Source: a bacterium
GTDB taxonomy: Bacteria > UBA8248 > JACPRG01 > G963555815
Direction of reading: 5' to 3'
DNA: 64,000 nucleotides
Assembly: GCA_965261595.1 (NCBI GenBank)
Contig: CBDHDG010000006.1
Span: 832,001 to 896,000, forward strand
A program made the translations under genes and the position numbers. The notes under the pieces were generated by a model that was given only the letters and a program-made list of their open reading frames with translations, was not told the origin of the DNA and made no database searches. Shown here one piece after another: positions 1-14,477 of this stretch (position 1 is its first letter; every line of letters begins with the position of its first letter).

Positions 1-32
1 CGCCCATTTGCTTGAGAGGAATTATGGGACCC
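1..32 (+). repeat. Copy 1 (truncated by the window edge) of a ~38-bp conserved site
   Basis: cgcccatttgcttgagaggaattatgggaccc matches 2787-2818 cgcccattcgcttaagaggaattatgggaccc with 2 mismatches. Confidence 0.85.
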
Positions 33-164
33 GTTGTGACCAATTTGTGACCACCCCTTCCTCTCAATGTGCCCTCATTCTCCCGTCAGCTTAAAAACCT
101 GCTAAAATTCCCATCGTCAACCCGAAAAGATACAGACCCGCCCACCTGATGGGGGCAACACGTC

Positions 165-2647
165 ATGCGGTACCGGCGCACCGTCCTGATTGCCGTTCTG
201 GCCTCAGTCCTTATTGCTCCCTCCCTGTTCGCCCAGACGCTGACGGTCAAGGTCCAACGGGGAAACGTGCGCTTCGGGCCTGGCAAGTCCTACCCCGTGA
301 TCGGAAGGGTCCAAAAAGCCGATAACTTCCCCATCGAGGCCCGCCAGGGCGACTGGTTCAAGATCCTGCTGGAGACGGGCCGGGAGGGCTGGGTCTTCAA
401 GTCTCTCGTCGAGGTCTCCGGTAAGCGGACGATTGGCGTCGTTCCTTTGGGTCCCACCCCATCGGCCTCCCGGCCTTACGGCGACTCCTGGGCCATCGTT
501 GTGGGTATCAACCGGTATCGAAAACCGGCCCTGCGCCTCCACTACGCCGTCAACGACGCCCGGAGCGTCACGGCCGCCCTTCAGAAGATCGGCTTTCCCA
601 AAAGAAACATCATCACCCTACTAGACGAGCGGGCCACGGCGCTGGCCATCCGCACGGCGTTCAACACCCTGATTACAAGGACACAGGGGCAAGACCGGGT
701 ATTCATCTTTGTCGCGGCGCACGGTTTGACGCTCGACCGTCCGGGGGGCGGGGCGATGGGATACCTGCTTCCGGTGGGGGCGGACCCGGCCAACATTGTG
801 GGGACGGCCATGCCGATGAGCGAGGTGAAGGACATGGCGTCGCTTCTCAAGGCGAAGCACGTCTTCTTTGCCGTGGACGCCTGCTTCTCAGGTCTTTTGG
901 CCGCACGGAGCGTGCCTCGGGCGGAAAAGCGGCGTGGACGCGGCTTACCTGACCCGGGGCCGTCTGCGGCAGATCCTCACGGCGGGCGAGCGGGACCAGC
1001 CGGTCCTGGAGGAAGGGGGCCACGGCCTTTTCACCCGGCGGCTCCTGGAGGCGATGGAGGGCGAGGCGGACAATTCTCCCCGGGACGGCGTCCTCACGGC
1101 GATGGAGGTGGCGGCGTTCGTCCAGGGGCAGGTGATCGCCTCGTCCAGCAGCCGTCAGACGCCCTTTTTCGGGACGATGGACGGCGTGGGGCAGTTCGTC
1201 TTCACCGCGCCGGCCATTGGAAATCGTCCGGCTGTTTCTCCGCCTCCGGCAACGCCCCGGCCTCCTGTCGCCTCCATCCCCATGGCTGACCCATTTGCTG
1301 GTCTCGGAAGGGTAGTTAAAGACCCCGATGAATTTGCGGGGTTGGGTAGGAAGGGCACGGGAGACCTGTTCTTGAATTCGAAGCCCCCTGGGGCGGTGGT
1401 CTTCTTGGATGGAAAGCGTCTTTCGGGTCCCACGCCACTCTTGGTCGAGAAGGTCCCCGCCGGTGAGCACCGAATATTGGTCCGCAAGGGCGAGAAGCAT
1501 GGCGGGTTCCGGGACGTTCGGCTCAAAGCGGGTGAGTTGAAGAACCTCACTGTGAGCCTGGAACGCCTGAAGGGTGAGCTTTACGTCAAGGTGCGTCCCT
1601 TCGGTTCGGCAGTTCTCGTGGACGGCAAGCGGTTGGGGAAGTCGCCGCTCAAGACAAAGGTGAACCCCGGTGAACGTCAGGTTGAAGTGAGACAGGAGGG
1701 CTACCGGAGGTACAGCGGCCGAGTGAAGGTCGAATTCGGGAAAACCACGGAAGTCTCGCAGACCCTCGCCGCGCTCGCCACGGCTACGCTGGTGGTTTCC
1801 TCGACGCCTTCGGGGGCGGAGATTTTCATTGGGAAAAAATCAGTGGGCAAGACGCCGCGGGCGATTCGGCTCTATGAGGGGGAATACACCGTTCGATTCA
1901 GGAAGCCGGGTTACAAGCCTTCAAGCCAGAAGGCCCTCGTTCGCGGGGACAGGAAGAGCACGGTTGTTGCCGTCCTGGCCGTTGACCCGATCCCTCCCGG
2001 GATGGTCAAGGTCCCTGCGGGTTGGTTCATCATGGGGAGCGGAAAGTACGAAAGTGAGAAGCCGCGCCGCCGGGTTTACCTGAATGAGTTTTTCATCGAC
2101 AAGTATCCGGTGACGAATGTCCGGTTCCGGAGGTTCGGAAAACCAAAGAAGGATCACGGCTCGAAGTTCAACGGCACCCGTCAGCCTGTGCGTGGGTGTG
2201 ACTTGGAGTCAGGCACGGGATTATTGCGGATCCGTGGGCAAGCGCTTGCCCACGGAGGCCGAATGGGAGAAAGCGGCTCGTGGGGTGGACGGCCGGAAGT
2301 ATCCCTGGGGGAATCAGTGGGACCCCTCGAAGGTGATTTGGGATAAGAACAGCGGCGATAAGACACACCCCGTGGATCGGACGTACAACACCCACCGGAG
2401 CCCTTATGGGGCTGTGGACATGTCGGGGAACGTGTGGGAGTGGGTGGGTGACTGGTTCAAGGCGGATTATTACCGGACCGCCCCGGATCGCAACCCGAAG
2501 GGACCTGCCTCCAGCAGCAGGCGCGTTTTGCGCGGCGGTTCCTGGAGCAGCGACAATACGTCGAACTTCCGCGCGGCGAATCGCAACGATTGGCCTCCGG
2601 ACAACCGGGGCAGCTGGGTTTCGTTTCGTTGCGCCAAGGCTCCATAA
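165..2647 (+). CDS. Secreted multidomain protein: signal peptide, SH3b, caspase-like peptidase C14, Pro linker, ~3 PEGA, FGE-sulfatase/CLec-fold domain. Split by two +1 frameshifts (~920, ~2191). Candidate DGR target
   Basis: ORFs 165-1289, 868-2346 and 2117-2647 join. SH3: [17 protein letters not shown]. Caspase dyad: FVAAHG / [88 protein letters not shown]. Confidence 0.85.
2522..2647 (+). repeat. DGR-like variable region VR1 (in-gene copy)
   Basis: Homologous to 9263-9389 and 9955-10078. Differences cluster in codon positions 1-2 of NNC/NNT codons between RGGSW and FRCAK. Confidence 0.7.
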
Positions 2648-2818
2648 TTACCCTTTGTCCTTTCGCCCTCTTACCCTTTGGGGGGTCCAGGGGGCTTGCC
2701 CCCTGGTTGGTTTAGCGATTAGCCCTTTTTCCCTCCGTTCATATCCTCAAACCCATAATGATCCGGCTCGCGACGCCGTGGGGACCCGCCCATTCGCTTA
2801 AGAGGAATTATGGGACCC
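2648..2818 (+). other. Conserved post-VR module: pyrimidine-rich tract, GC hairpin (2687-2706 ccagggggc-tt-gccccctgg), imperfect long hairpin/38-bp site
   Basis: Near-identical to the sequence after 9389 for ~95 bp, then similar through the 38-bp site ending at 9562. Confidence 0.75.
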
Positions 2819-3083
2819 AAAGTAGGTGTCTATTCAGGTGTCTTCTGAGGGTACACAAACCCACACACAGACACACAACCAGCACAAAGAGGTTTTCGCG
2901 GGAATCCAACAACAACGGGGATTTACGGGGGTTGGCCTGAGAATCCCGGAAGGCTTCTGACGGATTTAATGTGCGCCGCCTAGAGGAAGGGCTGCCAGGA
3001 TGAAAAGCCGCAGGTCTGCCGGTTCAAGCCGAAGCATCGAGCTAACAGCGAAGACTCAAGAATGACCCCGCCGCTTCTCCTCC

Positions 3084-3887
3084 TCAATCTATCAGGATCT
3101 GGCTGAGGAACAGCTTGGTGCGATCGTTCTGGGGGTTCTCGAAGAATCCATGGGGCTCGTTCTGCTCGATGATCTCGCCGCCGTCCATGAAGATGACACG
3201 GTCGGCGACGGTCTTGGCGAAGCCCATCTCATGGGTCACGACGAGCATGGTCATGCCGGTGCCGGCGAGTTCGATCATCACGTCCAGAACCTCCGTGATC
3301 ATCTCCGGATCCAAGGCCGAGGTCGGTTCGTCGAACAGCATGATCTTGGGCGACATGCAGAGCGCCCGCGCAATCACCACCCGCTGCTGCTGGCCGCCCG
3401 AAAGCTGGCCCGGGAACTTCTCTGCCTGTTCGGGTATCCGGACTCGCTCGAGATATTCCCGCGCCAATTCATTGGCCTCGGCCTTGGGCTTATTGCGCAC
3501 CCAGATCGGGCCCAATGTCAGATTCTCAAGCACCGTGAGATGGGAAAATAGATTGAAGTGCTGAAACACCATGCCGACTTCGCTGCGAATGGTGTGAATG
3601 TTCTTGAGATCGTTGGTGAGCTCGGTCCCGTCGACGAGGATCTGGCCCTGCTGGTGTTCTTCGAGCCGGTTTATGCAGCGGATCAGGGTGGACTTTCCAG
3701 ACCCCGACGGCCCGCAGATGACGATGCGCTCACCCTTATTGACGGTCAGGTTGATGTCCTTGAGCACATGGAAAGAACCGAACCATTTGTGGACACCCGT
3801 CATCTCGATCATGACGTCCTCGGAGACGGTCATGGTCTTGGTTGGGTGTTTGAGTCCGTCTTCCGATAAACCGGCTTTGTCATACAT
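3084..3887 (-). CDS. aapP: Amino-acid ABC transporter ATP-binding protein (AapP/BztD)
   Basis: [30 protein letters not shown]; operon context. Confidence 0.9.
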
Positions 3888-3928
3888 TATTATTTCTCCA
3901 ATCCTTACGTAAGATCCCCCGCCTAAGC

Positions 3929-5050
3929 CTAATGGCCGGTATCGAGTTTTCGCTCAAGAAAAAGCGAATACCTCGACATGCTGAAGCAGCAAATGAAGAA
4001 AAACAGCGCGACAAAAATATAGACCTCGCGAGCCAATCCTGCCCAGGCAGTGTCCGCCAACGACGCCCGGCCGACGCCCAGGGGATCGAACATACCTATA
4101 ATCAACACCAGCGTGGTGTCCTTGAAAAGCCCGATAAAGGTATTGACGATTCCAGGAATTGAAATCTTCAGCGCCTGCGGCAAAATAACCAGCCAGTGAG
4201 CCTTCAGGTAGGTTAGGCCAAGAGATTCGGCGGCTTCGTACTGGCCACTGGGAATTCCCTGCAACCCGCCACGAACGACTTCAGCAATATAACCCGCTGA
4301 AAACAGCGTCACCATAATCAGCACCCGCATAAGCAGGTCGAAGACTGTGCCCGGCGGCAGAAAGTAATTGAGCATCGTCGAAGCGATGAACAAAAGGGTG
4401 ATCAGGGGCACTCCGCGGATAAACTCGACGAACAAGACGCAAATAATCCTCAGAATCGGCATCTTCGACCGGCGTCCGAGGGCGAGGAGAATACCGATCG
4501 GAAGTGAGAACGATATGCCAGTGACGCCGATGATCAGTGTCAGCAAGATGCCACCGAATTGGTCGGTTTCAACTGGGCTCAAGCCGAAGCCCCCGACCAG
4601 GAGCCAGCCGGTAATGAACGGGAACGCCATCGCATACAAAAGCCCGACTTTTCGGCCTGGCATCTTATCGTAAAGCACCGGCACGATCGCCATTATCAGG
4701 AGCACGAACGACAGGTTCACCCGCCAGCGCAACGGTGCGGGATAGAACCCATAAACAAAAAGTCCCAGCCGATTTCTGATGAAGGCCCAGCAGGCGCCGC
4801 CCTCCGGCACCTCCATTTTGTCCCAGCATTCCTTGCGTGACTCTGCCGTCCAAACCGAATCCAAGAAGATCCACTCAAATAGCGGCGGTATCACCAACCA
4901 AAGGAACCAGATGGCCAAGAGGGTTAGCACCACGTTGAGCGGCGTAGATAGGAGGTTGTGTTTGACCCATCCGAGAACGCCAACTTCGGTGCGCGGTGGC
5001 GGCAATTCCGGATGCTGACCGGTTTCGTAGGTTTTCTCAACGTCAGCCAT
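3929..5050 (-). CDS. aapM: Amino-acid ABC transporter permease (AapM/BztC)
   Basis: [32 protein letters not shown]. Confidence 0.9.
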
Positions 5051-5053
5051 GGC

Positions 5054-6253
5054 TTATCTCTCCACCAGGGCCATCTTCTTGTTGTACCAATTCATGAATC
5101 CCGAGATCAGCAAAGAGATTGTGAGATACAGCAGAAGGACGATAATCATCGTCTCCATCTCTTTGCCCGTCTGCATCAGGGTAATCCCGCCGATCGTGGC
5201 GACGATATCCGTGTAGCCGATGGCGATCGCCAACGACGAGTTCTTGGTCAGGTTCAGATACTGGCTGGTCAGCGGCGGGATGATGACGCGGAGCGCCTGG
5301 GGTATGATGATCAGCCTGAGCGTTCTGTTGGGACGAAGCCCGAGCGCATAAGCGGCCTCGGTCTGCCCGTGGCTGACCGCGAGGATTCCCGAACGGACGA
5401 TCTCCGCGATAAAGCACGATGTGTAATAGGAAAGCGCCAGCCACAGAGCGATGAACTCGGGTTTGATTGCCAGCCCGCCGTTGAAATTGAACCCCTTCAG
5501 CTCCGGAATACCCCAAGAAAGCGGCATGCCAGCGGAAAGAAAAGCGGCCGCCATCATCACCACGATCACTCCAGTCGATATCCAGAAAACGGGGTAAACC
5601 CGACTCGTCTCACCCTGGATTTTTTTCGCCCAGCGTCTGAAAAAGAACACAAAAACAACCGAGATCACGAAGGCCGCCGCGACGATCCCGGCACCGGGTT
5701 CCAAAACGGGTTGGGGAATGAAGAATCCTCTGTTCGTGAGAAAGAAGATATCAGCAAAATTTATTGCCTTCTTTGGCACCGGCAAATGGATGACGACCAG
5801 CCCGTAGATGAACAGGATGTGCAAAAGGACAGGAACGTTGCGCGTGAATTCCAGGAAGCAATAAACGATACGGTTGACCAGCCAGTTCGTGGAGAGCCTG
5901 AGGATCCCCATTATGAAACCCATTATTGTCGTGAGAACTATACTGCAAGCTGCAACCAGCAGAGTGTTGAGAATTCCTACGAAGGCAGCCCGTAGATGAG
6001 TGGACCTTGAGCTGTATTCGATAAATGGAGAAAACGTTATGTCGTAACCAGCCGGGTACAAGAGGAAGCTGAAGCTAAACTCTTTTCCTACCGTTTCGAG
6101 GTTGATTACGACGTTACGGAGGATAAGGGCGAGGGCAGCGAATATCACCGTCAGCGTCACGATCTGGATGATGACGGACCGGGCTTTATGGTTTCTCCAA
6201 AGGCGTGTGACCAGGTTGCGGGTGTCAGGACCGGTCTCGACAATTCTGGCCAT
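5054..6253 (-). CDS. aapQ: Amino-acid ABC transporter permease (AapQ/BztB)
   Basis: GILNTLLVA, EIVRSGILAVSHGQTEAA, QYLNLTKNSSLAIAIGY. Confidence 0.9.
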   Translation of the reverse strand: MARIVETGPDTRNLVTRLWRNHKARSVIIQIVTLTVIFAALALILRNVVINLETVGKEFSFSFLLYPAGYDITFSPFIEYSSRSTHLRAAFVGILNTLLVAACSIVLTTIMGFIMGILRLSTNWLVNRIVYCFLEFTRNVPVLLHILFIYGLVVIHLPVPKKAINFADIFFLTNRGFFIPQPVLEPGAGIVAAAFVISVVFVFFFRRWAKKIQGETSRVYPVFWISTGVIVVMMAAAFLSAGMPLSWGIPELKGFNFNGGLAIKPEFIALWLALSYYTSCFIAEIVRSGILAVSHGQTEAAYALGLRPNRTLRLIIIPQALRVIIPPLTSQYLNLTKNSSLAIAIGYTDIVATIGGITLMQTGKEMETMIIVLLLYLTISLLISGFMNWYNKKMALVER

Positions 6254-6547
6254 GGCCAACAACGATCTCCTTCACGGGCTCATCAAGACCAAAAAAACCC
6301 AATATTGATACAATTCACGGGGGTGATCTTTGCTGCTGATCACTAGTGAGCTGCACCGTGGTGAGGGTCATTTCAAATAACCAGGGACGCCATCCAAGAC
6401 AAAACGTTCCCAGCCTTCGGTCGGGAAAATTGGTCCATTGGGTGTCTCAGGCACAATCAAATAACAACAAACATGGAATTTCAAGGGTCAATAGGTGCAG
6501 ACGCGTACCGGGACCCGATAGGTCGCCAGCACGCTTTTAGATTGATC

Positions 6548-7956
6548 TGGACCGCCCCTGGGTTATTTATTGGACACTCGGGTGAGGGTATTCGACCTCA
6601 TGCGGCCTCCGCAACTTGAGCGAGTTTTTCCTGCCTTGCCTGGGCCAGCGTTCGGTAGCCGTAGCCCTCGAGAATCCAATGATGGTTGTACAGGTTCTTG
6701 AACTCAAGCAACGCCCACCGCAGTTCCTCTACGGTGGCGAAAGAGCGCACCCACAGGAGATTCTCCTTCAAGATGCGGATGAACCACTCACAGTAGCCAT
6801 TTCCCTCGGGCGCCCGCACGAAGCTGGGCGAACTGGTCATGCCCAGGTAGGCGATCTCCCGCTGAAAGTCATCGGACAGATAGGCGGGGCCGTGGTCGTG
6901 ACGAACTTTAAGCCCCTCGGCGACGTCCGCCTCCAAGCCGGCGAAGCGCTCGGCGACCCCCTGCCGGATCGGCTCCAGGGCCTCGAAGCGGTTGCCGCTC
7001 TTGGCCGCATGGATCCCCACGCAGTCCACCGAGCAGTGATCCACCGCCACGAACACCGAGGCCATCCCCTCCTCGGTGGTCACCGTCGTCGTCATGTGCG
7101 TGCCCCACATTCGGTCGGGCCGCTCGGTGCGGATGGTCCCGTTGTGGGCCTTGGGACCTCGGGGTTTGTCCACCCGGTGGGGGGCCTGAAGCCCCGCCTC
7201 CCGCATCAGGCGACGCACCCGCTCCTTGCTGGTGCGGATGCCCGCGAAGCGCAGCCTCGCCCACACCTTGCGGTAGCCCTCGCCATGGAAGGGAGAGTCC
7301 TCCAGGACCTGCCGGATGTGGCCGAGGAGTTCCGCATCGGTGCACGGGCCCACAGGGCCGCGCTTATTGGGCGTGGGGCGTCCATGAACGGGGACCGCCT
7401 CTCGCCGCCGTTGCGCGTAGACCGTGGAGCGCGCCAAGCCCCAAAGGGCGCACACCCGCTTCAGGCCGTAGGCTCTGCCCGTGGAGGTGAAGCGGGCCTG
7501 ACTCATCGCCTCCACCTCCTGCCGGCTAAAGGGCGGCCGGCCTCCAGGCGGTCGATCTTCTCCCGCAGGACCTCGCCCTCCATCGTGAGTTCGCCCACCT
7601 TGGCCTTGAGCCGGGCGTTCTCCTCGTCCCGCTCATCCGCCGGGCGGGCTTTGAGCGCCGCCTCGCCCCCGCGAAGGAACGCCTCGCGCCAGGCGGAAAG
7701 CCGAGCCGCTGTCGTGCCCAACTCGCGGCAGAGCGTCTCCAGGCTCTCGCCCCGCAAAAGACGCAGGACCGCCTCCCGCTTGCGCCTGGCAGGAGAACCG
7801 ACCCCGCTCACTGCGATGCCCTGGGGCCTTGGCTCCGTTCGCCCTGCGGGCGCCCTCCGCCAAAGCCCCCTCTTGCTTTTGTTCGTTCATCGCGACACCC
7901 CTTTCTCCATGAATCATGGATCAATCGAGTGTCCAACAAAACCCTAGAGCGGGGGA
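6548..7956 (-). mobile_element. IS3-family element copy 1 (orfA with a +1 frameshift; orfB 6598-7515), 4-bp TSD gatc, inserted between aapJ and aapQ
   Basis: Ends TCCCCCGCTCTAGGGTTTTGTTGGACAC / GTGTCCAA..CCCAGGGGCGGTCCA; gatc at 6544-6547 and 7957-7960; rve-type orfB (GYRKV, HDHG, PEGNG..E). Confidence 0.93.
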
Positions 7957-7977
7957 GATCAACAATCAGTCGGTCTT

Positions 7978-8997
7978 CTAACGGAACGGCGGCGAATACT
8001 GCAGGCCGCCATTCGTCCACAAGGCATTTTGCCCACGAGGGAGACCGATAGGCGTTTTGGTGCCAATATTGCGCTCAAAGATCTCGCCGTAGTTACCGAC
8101 GAACTTGATGATATTGTACGCCCAGTCATTGCTCAGGCCCAACTCTTTACCCTGGCTACCCTCAACGCCCAAGAGACGCAAGACTTCGGGGTCTTTGGAG
8201 CTTTTCATCTTATCGACATTAGCCTGCGTGACGCCCTTTTCCTCAGCCGTAATCGTCGCGTTGAGAACCCAGGTTATAATATCAGACCACTGGTCGTCAC
8301 CTTGACGGGTGGCGGGACCCAGGGGCTCTTTCGAGATGATCTCTGGCAGGATGATGTGATTCTGCGGATCAGAGAACGTTGAACGGGTGGCGGCTAGACC
8401 TGAGGCGTCGGTGGTGTAAACGTCGCACCGTCCAGAAGAGTAGTTCTGCCGCGCCTCCTCGTTGGTCTCGATGGGTACGGCCTCATACTTCATGCCATTG
8501 GCGTGGAAGTAATCGGCTAGGTTGAGTTCAGTTGTTGTGCCGGTTTGGATGCAGACCGAAGCGCCGTTAAGTTCCTTAACGCTCTTGACACCGATCGCCT
8601 TCTTCACCATAAAGCCTTGGCCATCATAGTAGTTTACGCCATGGAATCGCAACTTAACGCCGACGTCGCGAGAGAAGGTGATGGTGGTGTTCCGCCACAG
8701 TACGTCGCCCTCACCTGAGTTGAGCTTGGTGAACCGGGTCTTGCCGGTCGCCGTCACCGCCTTGATCTTGCTTGCATCTCCCAGTACCGCCGCGGCAGTC
8801 GCCCGGCAGAAATCGATGTCGAAGCCTTTCCAAACGCCGCTCGCGTCCGGATAAGCAAAGCCGGCGATGCCGGTGCTTACGACGCAGCGCAACACACCGC
8901 GGGACTTGACGTCATCCAAGGTTCCGGCCCCGGCGCCAACCGGCCCGAGCGCCACGGCCATCGCCGCGCCTACGACCATCAACTTTAGAGTTTTCAC
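7978..8997 (-). CDS. aapJ: Amino-acid ABC transporter substrate-binding protein (AapJ/BztA)
   Basis: Signal peptide; YYDGQGFMV, CIQTGTTTELNLADYF, ISKEPLGP, GGLQYSPPFR. Confidence 0.92.
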   Translation of the reverse strand: MKTLKLMVVGAAMAVALGPVGAGAGTLDDVKSRGVLRCVVSTGIAGFAYPDASGVWKGFDIDFCRATAAAVLGDASKIKAVTATGKTRFTKLNSGEGDVLWRNTTITFSRDVGVKLRFHGVNYYDGQGFMVKKAIGVKSVKELNGASVCIQTGTTTELNLADYFHANGMKYEAVPIETNEEARQNYSSGRCDVYTTDASGLAATRSTFSDPQNHIILPEIISKEPLGPATRQGDDQWSDIITWVLNATITAEEKGVTQANVDKMKSSKDPEVLRLLGVEGSQGKELGLSNDWAYNIIKFVGNYGEIFERNIGTKTPIGLPRGQNALWTNGGLQYSPPFR

Positions 8998-9226
8998 TGC
9001 TTGCCCTCCCAGTTTGTCGGTATGTGACTAAATATGTTCAGCCTCCAAGATCGGACAAAGATTCGCGCCTACACGAATCGCCTCAACGCCCTGATTCGGA
9101 TAATTACCCGAACGCAGCGGCCTCACGGTGCCCGGATCAGATTTAGATCTTACGCTTCTGAGTCGGACAGGGCAAGGGGTAATATATAGCACAGGCCAGG
9201 AGTGGATGCAAGTAGCTGTCTCGGCC

Positions 9227-9562
9227 GCCCGCAACCCGAAGGGCCCATCCTCGGGCACGTTCCGCGTGGTTCGTGGCGCCTCGTGGTTCTACGTCAGTCC
9301 GTCACTCTTCCGCGCGGCGTTCCGGATCTGGTACCCAACTGGGCTTCACGTATGGCAACGTGGGTTTTCGTTGCGCCAAGGCTCCTTAAATTACCCTTTG
9401 CCCTTTCGCCCTTTTACCCTTTGGGGGGTCCAGGGGGCTTGCCCCCTGGCGGGTTTAGCGATTAGCCCTTTTGTCCCTGCGTTCATAGGCCACGACCCAT
9501 AGATATAGATCGCACGATGCCAGGGGGTCCCGCCCCTTCGCCGTGGAGAAGATAGGGGACCC
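9227..9562 (+). pseudogene. Orphan 3' fragment of an FGE/CLec gene (VR2) with full post-VR module and degenerate 38-bp site
   Basis: After removing one extra C it reads ARNPKGPSSGTFRVVRGASWFYVSPSLFRAAFRIWYQLGFTYGNVGFRCAKAP*. Hairpin at 9430-9449. No upstream gene body. Confidence 0.8.
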
Positions 9563-9695
9563 ATGCTGTGCCTGTTTTCGTGCCTGTTGGCTAAGCATTA
9601 GGAGATATACCGAGATAGATCGGAGCGGCGGACAATCCCTTATGGTTATTGGGAAACCCTTGATTTTTCTATGGTTTCCGTGCCACCATTCTCTT

Positions 9696-9752
9696 GATTC
9701 AGGGTCTAGTGGGGGAAACCTCGTGGGAGTTCGAGTCTCCCCTTCGGCACCA
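9696..9752 (+). tRNA. 3' half of tRNA-Leu(CAG), truncated; att-site remnant
   Basis: gattcagggtctag (anticodon loop and 3' stem strand), long variable arm, gggagttcgagtctccc T-arm, ends ttcggcacca; no D-arm or 5' acceptor strand. Confidence 0.8.
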
Positions 9753-9903
9753 TAAAATTCAAGCGTTTACAGGATGGGCGCGTTGCTTGCTTTCGGGATA
9801 TTTCTTTTCGCGTCGCCTGCGCAACCCGCATATGCGAATCGAAACTGTGCGACTTCCAGCGAACTCCATTCAGCACTCGGGCAAGTTTCTTTGAACTATC
9901 CTT

Positions 9904-10117
9904 TACCAAAACGCGCCCGCCCGTAATCCAAAGGGACCTGCCTCGAGCAGCTGGCGCGTGGTTCGCGGCGGCTCGTGGGGCAACCCTCAATCCAACGGGC
10001 TTCCGCGCGGCGATCCGGAGCGGGAGCCGTCCGGGCGGCAGGTACGTCGACCTGGGTTTTCGTTGCGCCATGGCTCCTTCACCGGGGCCGAAACCCTGAC
10101 CTTAAATAACCCTTTGC
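9904..10117 (+). pseudogene. Second orphan FGE/CLec 3' fragment (VR3) with truncated downstream tract
   Basis: After removing one extra C it reads [58 protein letters not shown]. Followed by a ~24-bp insert, then aaataaccctttgcc. Confidence 0.75.
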
Positions 10118-10175
10118 CAATCCCGATAACCAACCTTCCCCGTCATTCTCGCAGATCCAAATGGGAGAAAATCAG

Positions 10176-11976
10176 ATGACAATCGAGAATCGAATCGCGG
10201 CGCTGGAGAAAAGGTGCAAAAGGCTGGGCAAGACCCTTGTGGGGGTAGGCACCCTGGCTCTTTTTGCCGTTGTCGCCGGTACGGCCGGGTGGACGGTGGC
10301 GTATACGGGCGCCATCAGCCCATCGAGCATCACGACGAGATTGATTATTCTAGAGGATTCAGCCGGAAAGACGCTCCCCCGCTCTAGGGTTTTGTTGGAC
10401 ACTCGATTGATCCATGATTCATGGAGAAAGGGGTGTCGCGATGAACGAACAAAAGCAAGAGGGGGCTTTGGCGGAGGGCGCCCGTAGGGCGAACGGAGCC
10501 AAGGCCCCAGGGCATCGCAGTGAGCGGGGTCGGTTCTCCTGCCAGCGCAAGCGGGAGGCGGTCCTGCGTCTTTTGCGGGGCGAGAGCCTGGAGACGCTCT
10601 GCCGCGAGTTGGGCACGACAGCGGCTCGGCTTTCCGCCTGGCGCGAGGCGTTCCTTCGCGGGGGCGAGGCGGCGCTCAAAGCCCGCCCGGCGGATGAGCG
10701 GGACGAGGAGAACGCCCGGCTCAAGGCCAAGGTGGGCGAACTCACGATGGAGGGCGAGGTCCTGCGGGAGAAGATCGACCGCCTGGAGGCCGGCCGCCCT
10801 TTAGCCGGCAGGAGGTGGAGGCGATGAGTCAGGCCCGCTTCACCTCCACGGGCAGAGCCTACGGCCTGAAGCGGGTGTGCGCCCTTTGGGGCTTGGCGCG
10901 CTCCACGGTCTACGCGCAACGGCGGCGAGAGGCGGTCCCCGTTCATGAACGCCCCACGCCCAATAAGCGCGGCCCTGTGGGCCCGTGCACCGATGCGGAA
11001 CTCCTCGGCCACATCCGGCAGGTCCTGGAGGACTCTCCCTTCCATGGCGAGGGCTACCGCAAGGTGTGGGCGAGGCTGCGCTTCGCGGGCATCCGCACCA
11101 GCAAGGAGCGGGTGCGTCGCCTGATGCGGGAGGCGGGGCTTCAGGCCCCCCACCGGGTGGGCAAACCCCGAGGTCCCAAGGCCCACAACGGGACCATCCG
11201 CACCGAGCGGCCCGACCGAATGTGGGGCACGCACATGACGACGACGGTGACCACCGAGGAGGGGATGGCCTCGGTGTTCGTGGCGGTGGATCACTGCTCG
11301 GTGGACTGCGTGGGGATCCATGCGGCCAAGAGCGGCAACCGCTTCGAGGCCCTGGAGCCGATCCGGCAGGGGGTCGCCGAGCGCTTCGCCGGCTTGGAGG
11401 CGGACGTCGCCGAGGGGCTTAAAGTTCGTCACGACCACGGCCCCGCCTATCTGTCCGATGACTTTCAGCGGGAGATCGCCTACCTGGGCATGACCAGTTC
11501 GCCCAGCTTCGTGCGGGCGCCCGAGGGAAATGGCTACTGTGAGTGGTTCATCCGCATCTTGAAGGAGAATCTCCTGTGGGTGCGCTCTTTCGCCACCGTA
11601 GAGGAACTGCGGTGGGCGCTGCTTGAGTTCAAGAACCTGTACAACCATCATTGGATTCTCGAGGGCTACGGCTACCGAACGCCGGCCCAGGCAAGGCAGG
11701 AAAAACTCGCTCAAGTTGCGGAGGCCGCATGAGGTCGAATACCCTCACCCGAGTGTCCAATAACCCAGGGGCGGTCCAACGCGGCTTAGGCTCCGTGGGT
11801 CAGATGGCACTGTCAGAGCATGTGATTCAGCTGGAAAGACGCGGCTTCAGCTCCATGGGCATGGTAGTATCAGAGCATACGACTCAGCCGGGAAGTGGCG
11901 GGTTAAGCTCTATGGGGAAACCGGAAAGATCTCTTTCAAAACTCTAAACGCCAGAGGAACGGTTTCTCATCCCTAA
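10176..11976 (+). pseudogene. Small membrane-anchored protein with three DSAGKxR repeats, interrupted by IS3 copy 2
   Basis: Removing the IS and one TSD restores the frame: ..LIILEDSAGKT|RLRLRGSDGTVRACDSAGKTRLQLHGHGSIRAYDSAGKWRVKLYGETG..HP*. Confidence 0.75.
10375..11778 (+). mobile_element. IS3-family element copy 2 (orfA ~10441-10827, orfB ~10824-11732), 4-bp TSD acgc
   Basis: Same ends as copy 1; acgc at 10371-10374 and 11779-11782; orfA/orfB overlap ATGA. Confidence 0.95.
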
Positions 11977-12471
11977 TTGTTAGGAGACCACTTCCATGCC
12001 AGCCGGGCAGGAAGGATCCCGCTCGGCGGTTCATGCATGGGTGTAGCTGTAGGGGGAAGGTTGCCCTTTTGTCCCTGCGTTCATCGGCTCGCAATCCATG
12101 TGTATCTGGCTCGCGCCATCAGCAGGACAACCTTCGTGAGTTCCATTTCCCCCAAAATCGAGGGTGCGGGTTGCATGGAAGATGCCCCCCCTACGTTTGC
12201 CCATTCGATTTCCCCGAATGCCCTGATGGTGGCCAATAATAATGTCAGGATTATCATCATTGGGTATCAGATAATAGGTAAGGAGTGGAGGAAACGGGGC
12301 CGAAACCCCCGAAAATGAGTGAATTGGGGCCTGGGATGGCCTTTTGGGCTGATTCTCGAGCGAGTGTGAGGGCCTAAAAACCTCTCCTGGCCCCCCTCTA
12401 GAAACCTCCATTTTCGTCTGTCATTACTGGCTATATCTTTGATTCTAATACGCGTGCGCGTGCGGGGGTAG

Positions 12472-12819
12472 TCAGGCGGGGGCAGTCCAGGCAAGTCTCC
12501 CGGTTTCGAATTCCTCCCTGAGCCGATTCATGGCATGGGTGAGTATCCCCAATTCTGAAAATCCCGTCTCCCTGGCTTCCGCCCGGAGCCATTCCCCATC
12601 TTCTCCCGGAATTTCTATCCTCCCCTCCCGGCCGTTCTCTTGTCTCGGGGCCTCGGGGGTGTCTGCACCGTTTCCCTCCTGGGCGCGGGCCATCTCCAGG
12701 GCATGGCAAACCGTCTCGGAGAGAGACCGCTTGCCTTGGGTGCCCGGCCCCTGCATCCAGTCCTTGAGTTCCTGGGGGATTCGGACGGTAATGGTTGCGT
12801 CTTTGACTACATATTCCAC
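12472..12819 (-). CDS. Putative ribbon-helix-helix (Arc/CopG-like) DNA-binding protein
   Basis: N-terminal ITVRIPQELKDWM..KRSLSETVCHAL pattern. Confidence 0.5.
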   Translation of the reverse strand: MEYVVKDATITVRIPQELKDWMQGPGTQGKRSLSETVCHALEMARAQEGNGADTPEAPRQENGREGRIEIPGEDGEWLRAEARETGFSELGILTHAMNRLREEFETGRLAWTAPA

Positions 12820-13007
12820 GTTGTCTTACCTTTCCCGCGGAGCGGGGTTCACAAGAGACTCAATGTAGGACATGGGACATGGAGCTGACAACGGGTGGGG
12901 CCAGTCAGTGTCCATCCGACACCCCCAATCCAACGGTGTGAAAAACGGTGTGAATCGGAACCCCAACGCCTGCATATCACTTCACATGGTTGCATGCGGT
13001 TGCTGGT

Positions 13008-13036
13008 TTGTAAACGCCTCACAAATCCTGTAACAT
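13008..13036 (+). promoter_or_regulatory. Possible sigma70 promoter of selC
   Basis: ttgtaa-N17-taacat, ~40 bp upstream of the tRNA. Confidence 0.3.
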
Positions 13037-13074
13037 CAAGGATATCCGCTGGATTCGTAAACATGGCCTTGCTC

Positions 13075-13171
13075 GGAAGCGCATAGGGTCCCGGTGGCCC
13101 TCCTGGACTTCAAATCCAGTGTTCCGGCTTAACCCCCGGTAGGTGGGTTCGACTCCCACGCGCTTCCGCCA
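13075..13171 (+). tRNA. selC: tRNA-Sec (anticodon TCA)
   Basis: 8-bp acceptor stem GGAAGCGC/GCGCTTCC, ctgga-cttcaaa-tccag anticodon arm, long variable arm, gtgggttcgactcccac T-arm, GCCA end. Confidence 0.93.
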
Positions 13172-13691
13172 TTTTCACTTTTCCGACGGGCCGTCCAAAT
13201 CGACTTCGGCGCGTGACGCGCGCGGCGAAAATCGCCCCGCTTCCGATGGCCCGCCCTCCGTCCGACTTCCAAACAAACTTGAGAAAAGACCCCACGAACG
13301 CCCGGAGCGCACAAGGGGCCGACAACGCGGAACCGGCGCGCCGCCACGCCTGAAATCTCCAGTCCCATTTCGGCCTTCCTTTCTGATCCAAGGGAGTGGC
13401 GCCCCGGAGGGAGCGGCTGCCCGGAGGGAGGAGGGGGTGGACGAATCCGGATGAGGTTCATGCTGAATCAGGCTTTGCCGACTCGCAAGATGACAAAGGA
13501 TGACTTGTCACTGTGTTAGAATTCAACGGTTCGCCTACATGCGTCAGGAATTCATGCGCCTCCGCGCTTCACCGCCATCGCCGATGGGCCGATCCGCGAT
13601 AGGACATCAGCCCCCTCCCTCCCCCCCCCCCGCCGGTCCTCGCGTCTCCGGGTTGGCGGGAAAACCGGGGCGGCGCCATCAGGAGAAATCA

Positions 13692-14477
13692 ATGAGCGTG
13701 CTCGCCGAGAAGAAGGACCGCATCCTCACATTGACCATCGACCGCCCGAAAGCGATGAACGCCCTGGATCCGGACACCCGGGGCCGGCTGGCCGATCACT
13801 TCGAGGAATTTCACGACGACGACGACCTGTGGGTCGCGGTGCTCACCGGGGCGGGCGAGAAATCGTTCTGCGCCGGAGCGGACATCAAGAAAACCATCGG
13901 CGCTTCCTTGGATCAGACCGTCTGGGCGAGGCGGAAGCCTTTTCTCAAGGGCCGGGACCTCTACTCCGTCCTGGGAAACCTCACCAAACCGGTCGTCGCC
14001 GCCGTCAACGGTTACGCCCTGGGCGGGGGCCTGGAGTTGGCGCTCTGCTGCGACATCCGCGTCGCCTCGGAGACGGCGACCTTCGGCCTGCCGGAGGTGG
14101 GCCTGGGGATCATCCCGGGCGCGGGCGGGACCCAGCGGCTCACGAGCGTCGTGGGCGTCGCCCACGCGTTGAACCTGATCCTCACGGGAAACCGGATCGA
14201 CGCCGGGGAGGCGCACCGCATCGGCCTCGTCAGCGCCGTTGTTCCTCCCGGCGAGCTCATGAGCGCGGCGCGCGAGACGGCCGAGTCGATCCGCAAGCGC
14301 GGACCCATCGCCGTCCGGTTCGCGAAAGAAGCGGTCCTCCAGGGCGCCGACATGACGATGCGCGAGGGCCTGCTGCTGGAAAACCTCCTGTCGAACCTGA
14401 TTCGCGGGACCCAAGACGCCGCCGAGGCAACCCGGGCCTTTTCCGAGAAACGAGCCCCGAATTTCATCGGGGAATAG
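13692..14477 (+). CDS. Enoyl-CoA hydratase/isomerase (crotonase)
   Basis: RPKAMNAL, FCAGADI, ALGGGLEL, PEVGLGIIPGAGGTQRL. Confidence 0.92.
   Translation: MSVLAEKKDRILTLTIDRPKAMNALDPDTRGRLADHFEEFHDDDDLWVAVLTGAGEKSFCAGADIKKTIGASLDQTVWARRKPFLKGRDLYSVLGNLTKPVVAAVNGYALGGGLELALCCDIRVASETATFGLPEVGLGIIPGAGGTQRLTSVVGVAHALNLILTGNRIDAGEAHRIGLVSAVVPPGELMSAARETAESIRKRGPIAVRFAKEAVLQGADMTMREGLLLENLLSNLIRGTQDAAEATRAFSEKRAPNFIGE

Follow-up and report, generated by a model that had tools for sequence, protein, structure and literature searches.

The window analysed here, a 64,000-nt stretch of a bacterial genome (positions 832001-896000 of contig C6 in the 6.17-Mb assembly G000), opens with a target gene of a diversity-generating retroelement (DGR) that lies between two direct copies of a short sequence. 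What is this sequence, and does it make the gene mobile? An earlier note read it as a 38-bp recombination site, attC-like or dif/Xer-like, which would turn the bracketed gene and its variable region (VR) into an excisable cassette. We consider it probable (roughly 70%) that the site forms part of the integrase-distal attachment arm of tRNA-integrating islands, and that it is not a cassette site. According to this proposal, a ~100-nt module would lie just inside the integrase-distal arm of islands that enter tRNA genes by means of tyrosine integrases, and the window would hold three decayed ends of such islands, of tRNA-Ala type (1-53), tRNA-Phe type (2715-2967) and tRNA-Leu type (9459-9752). 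Some ~190 insertion sequence (IS) copies, along with the accretion of islands in tandem and their deletion, would have scrambled these ends. The DGR target gene would be the terminal cargo of the tRNA-Phe-type island end, placed between remnants of two arm types and diversified in trans from a template on another contig.

A repeat search of the window placed the site, cgcccatt(t/c)gctt(g/a)agaggaattatgggaccc, at 1-32 and 2787-2818, where 30 of 32 positions are identical (94%), and found a degenerate copy of the same repeat family at 9531-9562 (69%). Searching with the IUPAC pattern of the site at up to three mismatches returned only the first two places, both in the window (against 0 in 100 shuffles) and in the whole genome. 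A profile search, together with the sequence to the left of the window, revealed that the repeated unit is ~100 nt long and that the 32-nt site is its 3′ end. This module can be written as CCCTTTTG...GGGWCCC-N24-GGGACCC. The genome contains seven full copies scattered over three contigs, among them w0, w1 and w2 of the window, and two partial copies, both 5′ halves only (nhmmer; Table 1). The earlier note was thus right about the direct repeats and the degenerate third copy; its site corresponds to the last 32-38 nt of w1, and its ~38-bp unit is too short, the ~100-nt one being detected by nhmmer at the E 1e-24 level in all three window copies.

In an alignment of 13 copies from two species, 22 columns of the module are invariant, and the similarity breaks off abruptly after GGGACCC. 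The module has sharp ends and an AT-rich centre, around which its two GGGWCCC palindromes stand 31 bp apart. We also observed mosaic junctions: 5′ halves alone, one 3′ half alone, and two alternative upstream neighbours of the module. Among 40 relatives searched, G001 (an assembly of 190 contigs), the sole genome of the same genus, gave eight module matches, and the remaining 39 gave none; a gapped pattern search of metagenomes recovered nine contigs that hold the module. Metagenome contigs L151 and L153 probably represent one population. Altogether 24 copies were considered (G000, G001 and metagenome contigs), and from these sequences the module appears to be restricted to this genus. A pattern scan of genome contigs with GGGGWCCCGCCCNYTCGC returned at least 117 loci; among the matches listed two hold the module, both in G001, and the others are chance matches in GC-rich genomes, which carry little weight for its wider distribution.

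A recurrent order was observed, namely cargo gene, module, two tandem 8-11-mers, an arm of 110-145 nt that is alignable within a type, and a tRNA fragment broken in or next to the anticodon loop. The tandem 8-11-mers begin 4-9 nt after GGGACCC at a spacing of 9-12 nt, and their sequence varies between copies. We counted exact repeats of at least 8 nt at a 9-13-nt offset within 45 nt 3′ of the module, and found them in 14 of the 21 copies having 45 nt of downstream sequence, compared with 0.84% of 5000 random genome windows. Fragments of tRNA genes (26-55 nt, 94-100% identity) lie 137-199 nt downstream of the module in 7 of the 20 copies whose downstream sequence extends to 200 nt or more. As the whole G000 genome has eight tRNA fragments of this kind, finding two of its seven module copies ~140 nt from one is, by our own arithmetic, far beyond chance. 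We infer that crossover takes place where the anticodon loop is broken; the points visible in this way lie 137-190 nt downstream of the site.

The tandem 8-11-mers would be arm-type binding sites for the integrase, with a sequence matched to the integrase type. The AGGTGTCT pair that follows w1 recurs in G001 and on metagenome contigs L151/L153, in each case in a tRNA-Phe island, and two copies of TTGTCCGTG follow the partial tRNA-Met of G001:C20. At C4:590235, the motif pair of w0 (TGTGACC x2) is found between a 23-nt 3′ end of tRNA-Ala(CGC) and an integrase gene (C4:590325-590798, minus strand). A GTGTCC pair is located at C5:769022, and GTGTCCATATAGGTGTCC stands beside the integrase at C5:769069. 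In general, TGTGACC, GTGTCC and TGTCCGT pairs recur next to integrases or tRNAs.

Two complete islands served as references. In G001:C9, a 7.4-kb segment starts with tRNA-Phe′ (positions 1-41; 4119-4159), followed by the arm, two copies of AGACACCT (4275, 4287) and the 3′ half of the module; it continues with a formamidase gene, a gene of the formylglycine-generating enzyme (FGE) family, a CsgG/TPR gene, DUF1989, the integrase and the intact tRNA-Phe (11536-11611). The integrase is a 403-aa tyrosine integrase (10312-11523; PF00589, E 3.4e-28) with about 120 N-terminal residues before the core-binding domain, and the 3′ end of its gene holds two copies of AGACACT. The island on G000:C2 starts with an intact tRNA-Met (195018-195094), two copies of GGTGTCCA and an integrase remnant (211 aa, cut by an IS), and continues with an NMT1 gene, the module, two copies of TTGTCCGTG and tRNA-Met′ (199025-199050). 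Each island thus has an intact tRNA at one end and, at the other, a direct repeat of a portion of it, and the integrase adjoins the intact tRNA. Short direct repeats occur on both arms, in the same orientation in G001:C9 (AGACACCT and AGACACT); the pairs on the two arms differ by at least one base, and in the C2 island they have only TGTCC in common. From the order of these two islands, tRNA-integrating islands would have the module as the innermost element of their integrase-distal end. At tRNA-Met, arm types are mixed in both G000 and G001, which fits tandem accretion followed by deletion as outlined for cis-mobilizable elements in the review PMC5704250.

With these references, the window itself could be re-read. 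Its segment 2018-2967 is colinear with L151 (80% over 962 nt), where the same FGE-type VR, hairpin, module, AGGTGTCT pair and arm are followed without a break by tRNA-Phe′ and the chromosomal sequence flanking tRNA-Phe. The last six nucleotides of the window's arm, GGATTT, correspond in reverse complement to positions 36-41 of tRNA-Phe, which fall in its anticodon loop and stem. As the colinearity ends exactly at 2967, w1 would mark where a tRNA-Phe-type island ends; the 3′ end of an ABC-transporter operon now adjoins it at the expected crossover point. At w0, the tRNA-Ala-type repeats are followed after ~6 nt by the 5′ leader of FGE-family genes, and the same junction is found in G001 and in three metagenome contigs. 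The third copy, w2, belongs to a ~530-nt remnant in which an orphan VR fragment precedes the module, with its arm and tRNA-Leu′ after it. The tRNA remains are a tRNA-Leu fragment at w2, 6 nt of tRNA-Phe at w1, and none at w0. Since the two copies that bracket the DGR target gene lead into arms of different type (tRNA-Ala, TTGTGACCA x2; tRNA-Phe, AGGTGTCT x2), they are not a matched pair. The window also has two copies of an IS3-family element (Table 1). This 1.41-kb IS (orfA with HTH, orfB with rve) gave 197 megablast rows in the genome, that is ~190 copies, mostly full length and ~99% identical, and has thus undergone a massive recent expansion here; this number of near-identical copies would account for the scrambling of the island ends.

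Table 1. Positions of the features discussed (window coordinates unless a contig is named; spacing is that of the tandem repeats).
Feature	Position	Strand	Remarks
Module w0	C6:831929-832031 (72 nt left of window to position 31); window part 1..32	+	nhmmer E 9.5e-24
TTGTGACCA x2	34..53	+	11-nt spacing; putative arm-type integrase sites, tRNA-Ala type
5′ leader of FGE-family genes	60..164	+	two more copies in G000, five in congener G001, none preceded by the site
DGR target gene	165..2647	+	SH3, caspase, three PEGA, FGE-sulfatase (Pfam); read in three frames
VR1	2512..2647	+	template repeat C7:827378-827499, blastn 87.7%
8-bp GC hairpin after VR	2687..2706	+	terminator-like; same hairpin follows VRs without module
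Module w1	2715..2818 (2715-2817; C6:834715-834817)	+	nhmmer E 3.7e-24; alignment
AGGTGTCT x2	2824..2843	+	12-nt spacing; putative arm-type sites, tRNA-Phe type
tRNA-Phe-type arm	2844..2967	+	homology to G001 and L151 islands stops at GGATTT (2962-2967)
IS3-family IS	6547..7957	-	interrupts ABC-transporter operon
Orphan FGE 3′ fragment (VR2)	9225..9390	+	without upstream domain; mismatches to C7 template not adenine-specific
Module w2	9459..9562 (9459-9561; C6:841459-841561)	+	nhmmer E 2.8e-24
GTGCCTGTT x2	9568..9588	+	12-nt spacing
tRNA-Leu-type arm	9589..9697	+	homologous IS-cut arm precedes second tRNA-Leu fragment C7:93485-93539
tRNA-Leu(CAG) 3′ part, positions 33-87	9698..9752	+	100% identity; intact gene C6:244445-244531(-)
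IS3-family IS, second copy	10375..11778	+	inverted relative to first; the two flank 7958-10374
ctaattgtt repeat	11990-12060; C6:831843-831928; C2:197524-197626		also G001 and metagenome loci
Partial module, 5′ half only	12060..12122	+	nhmmer E 2.7e-06; ctaattgtt repeat precedes
tRNA-Sec gene	13075-13171		~1 kb right of last partial module
Other full module copies, G000	C2:198783-198885; C6:215017-215118; C7:832063-832158(-); C7:87464-87560		nhmmer
Tandem motif by copy			TTGTGACCA (w0); AGGTGTCT (w1, C6b); GTGCCTGTT (w2); TTGTCCGTG (C2a); AGGTGTCCA (G001 L016)
tRNA fragments by copy			tRNA-Leu(CAG) 33-87 after w2; tRNA-Met 41-66 after C2a; tRNA-Met 33-65 after L016; tRNA-Phe 1-41 reversed after L011, L151, L153; tRNA-Leu(UAA) 1-35 after L156
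TrwC-type relaxase/coupling-protein pairs, G000	C3:7597-9340; C4:13502-15245; C4:410688-412473; C5:16687-18452; C5:1098670-1100413; C6:1519241-1520978; C7:433391-435153; C7:1362009-1363720

The gene between w0 and w1 is a genuine DGR target, as the earlier note had stated, served in trans from another contig: of 22 mismatches between VR1 and the C7 template, 17 fall at template adenines, and a reverse transcriptase lies beside the template (RVT_1 match, C7:827720-828259). In that region (C7:827378-828900) the reverse transcriptase is split over two frames, RVT_1 being matched in one of 279 aa and in a 222-aa open reading frame (ORF), and an IS copy begins at C7:828808; the retroelement may be disabled. 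The target gene has +1 frameshifts near 931 and near 2170, which may be true mutations or assembly errors; its homologue on L151 is intact, being in frame at the second of these sites. Contigs of two public runs, X18 and X19, have one base fewer at 931, which fuses the first two frames, and are like the window at the second site. The hairpin after VR1 we take to be the usual post-VR hairpin of DGR targets.

Several further observations concern relatives of this gene. A leader of ~140 nt with the start of the signal peptide (window 60-201) is common to several FGE-family genes at 84-89% identity (C6:1469247, C6:1508510 and five places in G001), and forms a second repeated module that is independent of the main finding. 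A caspase-FGE paralogue (78-80% identity, region C6:242009-244531) is located directly downstream of the intact tRNA-Leu(CAG), 600 kb from the window; two copies of GGGAGTA lie between that tRNA and the paralogue, whose start has 36 nt identical to window 175-210. Metagenome contig L154 has a w0-type module, the repeats, the leader and then only ~14 nt of the gene start, before it jumps to DNA that in G000 is found downstream of the paralogue's stop codon. L154 represents a gene-less allele whose end points do not lie at module copies. Two copies of GTCACCA were also observed after tRNA-Thr fragments or near integrases (C5:743243, C7:1258321, C7:1170618); they suggest another island family, built with arm repeats in the same manner and lacking the module.

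Several points weigh against the assignment to island ends. Of the 20 copies with enough downstream sequence, 13 are without a tRNA fragment, including the bracketing copies w0 and w1, and none of the three window copies has an integrase or an intact target tRNA nearby. The distance to the intact tRNA-Leu(CAG), which has the opposite orientation, is 600 kb, and the GTGCCTGTT repeats after w2 are unlike the GGGAGTA pairs next to the intact tRNA-Leu genes. Copies C7c, C7d, L020 and L150 have no tandem repeat. A tRNA-Phe′ arm of G000 at C5:85051 has the repeats and no module, so that the module is separable from the arm and may be a passenger. Finally, we infer both the binding of integrase to the repeats and excision from sequence.

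This leads to the explanation that survives best next to the island reading, namely that the module is a functionless dispersed repeat, spread with the 3′ flanks of DGR targets and with island ends by homologous recombination. The mosaic junctions, the C5:85051 arm and the ~190 IS copies are all in its favour, as is the silence of the module in searches for a function. Rfam at a permissive threshold gave only tRNA-Sec and chance matches in window 1-14000, RNAalifold on seven copies reached -6.4 and -8.3 kcal/mol on the two strands with no convincing helix, and a promoter and terminator scan found no sigma-70-like promoter in the module, the post-VR GC hairpin being the sole terminator-like feature. 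Small minus-strand ORFs with an ATGAAC start were rejected, as their peptides of 7-31 aa are unconserved by eye. A functionless repeat is harder to reconcile with the constant position of the module: across arms of four tRNA specificities, whose integrases are just 30-44% identical between types where compared, it precedes the tandem repeats by 4-9 nt. Both of its ends are sharp, and the 22 columns are invariant in copies from two species. We therefore regard this explanation as rather unlikely. A miniature inverted-repeat transposable element was rejected: no inverted pair of at least 16 nt occurs at the module ends, and the flanks of the copies are unrelated, with no duplicated target.

The cassette explanation of the earlier note drew on features that do exist. 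Two direct copies with 94% identity bracket one gene, the second can fold as proposed, and the module ends sharply at GGGACCC in 13 of 13 aligned copies. The test of association with VRs went against it. Among the seven full G000 copies, two (w1 and w2) lie 3′ of a VR, and among all 24 copies five or six do (w1, w2, L016, L151, L153 and probably L012, whose contig ends at its putative VR position). Conversely, PF03781 (FGE) has 21 matches at 18 loci in G000, and the module follows one of these 18; five other VR-like gene ends retain the post-VR spacer, some of them with the GC hairpin, without the module, and congener FGE genes with the same leader lack the site upstream. Neighbours of the other G000 copies are unrelated: one copy follows an NMT1-type binding-protein gene, one is 390 nt 3′ of a Bmp-type binding-protein gene, and another is upstream of a Rieske oxygenase gene. 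To the left of the window, which the earlier note had suggested inspecting for another FGE gene, we found instead the ctaattgtt repeat and then an IS3-family IS (C6:830438-831842). This repeat of ~100 nt, ctaattgtt(a/g)ggagaccacttccat...ggttcatgcatggg...gtagggggaaggtt, stands before 9 of the 24 module copies and is found within the reference islands as well.

The fold does not help the cassette either. The proposed hairpin (cccataat/attatggg) is indeed the minimum-energy DNA fold of copy 2 alone (-11.7 kcal/mol), and is unexceptional (z -1.19; matched by 31 of 200 shuffles); of the copies folded as single-stranded DNA, the other four form different structures (z -1.69 to +0.92). Over the aligned copies, 70.9% of cells are paired as the hairpin demands, compared with 69.1 +/- 1.5% in shuffles (74 of 500 as high), and the covariation score is 0.098 as against 0.099 in shuffles, 268 of 500 of which reach it; the two GGGWCCC heptamers, being invariant, are uninformative on pairing. 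Thus the site occurs independently of VRs and shows no covariation, the first two observations that the earlier note had named as telling against its idea.

As an attC site the module was rejected, because its sequence is kept and its structure is not, with pairing and covariation at shuffle level. The core RYYYAAC...GTTRRRY is not at the module ends (alignments, by eye), and the letters after GGGACCC (GTTGTGA, AAAGTAG, ATGCTGT, GCAAATT) have no common core. None of the 64 genomic PF00589 matches falls in the window, an IntI-specific model not having been run, and attC-like arrays were not found, the copies being dispersed over three contigs. As a dif/Xer site it was rejected too, since there are seven full copies per genome and the TTATG/CATAA letters on which the 11-6-11 reading depends are missing from most aligned copies.

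Contigs of public runs (Logan; four runs, X15, X18, X19 and X1) aligned to C6:831850-835600 add two joints, in X18/X19, that skip or go back over the ~2.8 kb between the copies. These joints carry 13 and 22 replaced letters and have shorter sides of 29 and 44 nt. We read them as other module copies or orthologues, so that they are neither support for nor evidence against excision; assembled contigs of this kind are unable to reveal rare excision junctions. The shares for the public runs were 0.3-0.46 in marine metagenomes. G001 L012 was compared with G000 C6:1418336 as a possible empty site; the genomes diverge at the arm end, but the G001 contig does not reach the far side of the element, so that the comparison carries no weight. 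As the bracketing arms are moreover of two different types and no recombinase gene is present in the window, an excisable cassette seems to us very improbable. What stands of the original idea is a link to tyrosine-recombinase mobility in another form, in that VR genes would ride as cargo on integrase-mobilised islands; the attC or dif site does not.

No better placed is a mimic of an origin of transfer (oriT), by which resident conjugative elements would mobilise integrase-bearing or decayed islands. G000 does have eight pairs of TrwC-type relaxase and coupling protein (their near-identical scores point to several copies of one conjugative element family), and the module contains palindromes and is conserved across islands with different integrases. 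However, nhmmer found nothing module-like within 6 kb of any of the eight relaxase loci (best E 3.2, 4.4 bits), no relaxase accessory gene was observed in the two small reference islands, and a search for PF03432 relaxases gave no match. A cis-regulatory leader or small RNA for the downstream gene is the least credible of all: several copies do lie 50-200 nt upstream of a same-strand ORF (w0, C6b, C7c, C7d, C2a), but those genes are unrelated, none follows w1, w2 or L011, and the lack of an Rfam match, of a promoter and of a consensus fold better than -6 to -8 kcal/mol on either strand is as described above.

Returning to the assignment of the module to island ends, its role may tentatively be a binding or bending region for an accessory recombination protein, a guess that we favour over a passenger repeat or an oriT mimic and hold at clearly less than even odds. 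It is more doubtful still whether the module could be a dedicated, genus-specific junction element that joins cargo to an att/integrase module and where arms are swapped between tRNA specificities (Ala, Phe, Leu, Met). If this were true, DGR targets could be sent to other tRNA loci and spread from genome to genome, with one chromosomal reverse transcriptase continuing to diversify them in trans. The novelty is modest and lies in two points, the conserved, genus-specific module found at the ends of islands and the place of DGR target genes as terminal cargo. Such a layout would explain how the target gene can be so distant from its template and reverse transcriptase, and also why orphan VR fragments are found next to tRNA fragments. 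Shuffling of DGR variable genes in the manner of integrons is unsupported, and a more ordinary, testable island picture takes its place; in these IS-rich genomes, the module with its tandem repeats is a practical marker of island ends.

Among known systems, integron attC sites and clusters of attC sites lacking integrases (CALIN) share with the module the ~100-nt size, the position 3′ of ORFs in the same orientation and the ability of two copies to bracket one gene. They differ in that here the sequence is kept and the structure is not, the reverse of attC, that there is no R″/R′ core, no array and no integron integrase nearby, and that integrase arm repeats and tRNA fragments follow the element. 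The likeness to dif/XerCD is confined to one copy readable as 11-6-11; seven copies per genome, unconserved arm letters and a left-right arm symmetry of ~5/11 (by eye) are unlike it.

The attP of phage lambda has arm-type integrase sites on both arms, and tyrosine integrases include classes that cross over in the anticodon loop. Like lambda attP, the arms described here have short direct repeats about one helical turn apart, 50-140 bp from the crossover on both sides; in the tRNA-Phe island of G001 these repeats point the same way on either arm, and the integrase has its ~120 residues before the core-binding domain. Unlike lambda attP, the crossover would be in the anticodon loop of a tRNA, and the pairs of the two arms differ by a base or more.

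The closest likeness is to the tRNA-integrating islands, integrative mobilizable elements, decayed cis-mobilizable remnants (CIMEs) and tandem accretion treated in the review PMC5704250. As in the elements described there, in the two reference islands a tyrosine integrase adjoins the intact tRNA and a partial tRNA repeat stands at the far end; cargo sets are small, remnants without an integrase retain att-side sequence, and at one tRNA, tRNA-Met, both G000 and G001 combine arms of two integrase types. The differences are the conserved 100-nt module just inside the distal arm at four tRNA specificities and the DGR target as the last cargo gene in 5-6 of 24 copies; unlike intact islands, the three window copies have lost the integrase and the intact tRNA. 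A DGR on an integrative element has a precedent in the Legionella ICE-beta-ox region, as given in PMC4010831, with DGR components inside an integrase-mobilised island as in the present case; here, the target gene would stand alone at an island end, with its template and reverse transcriptase on another contig.

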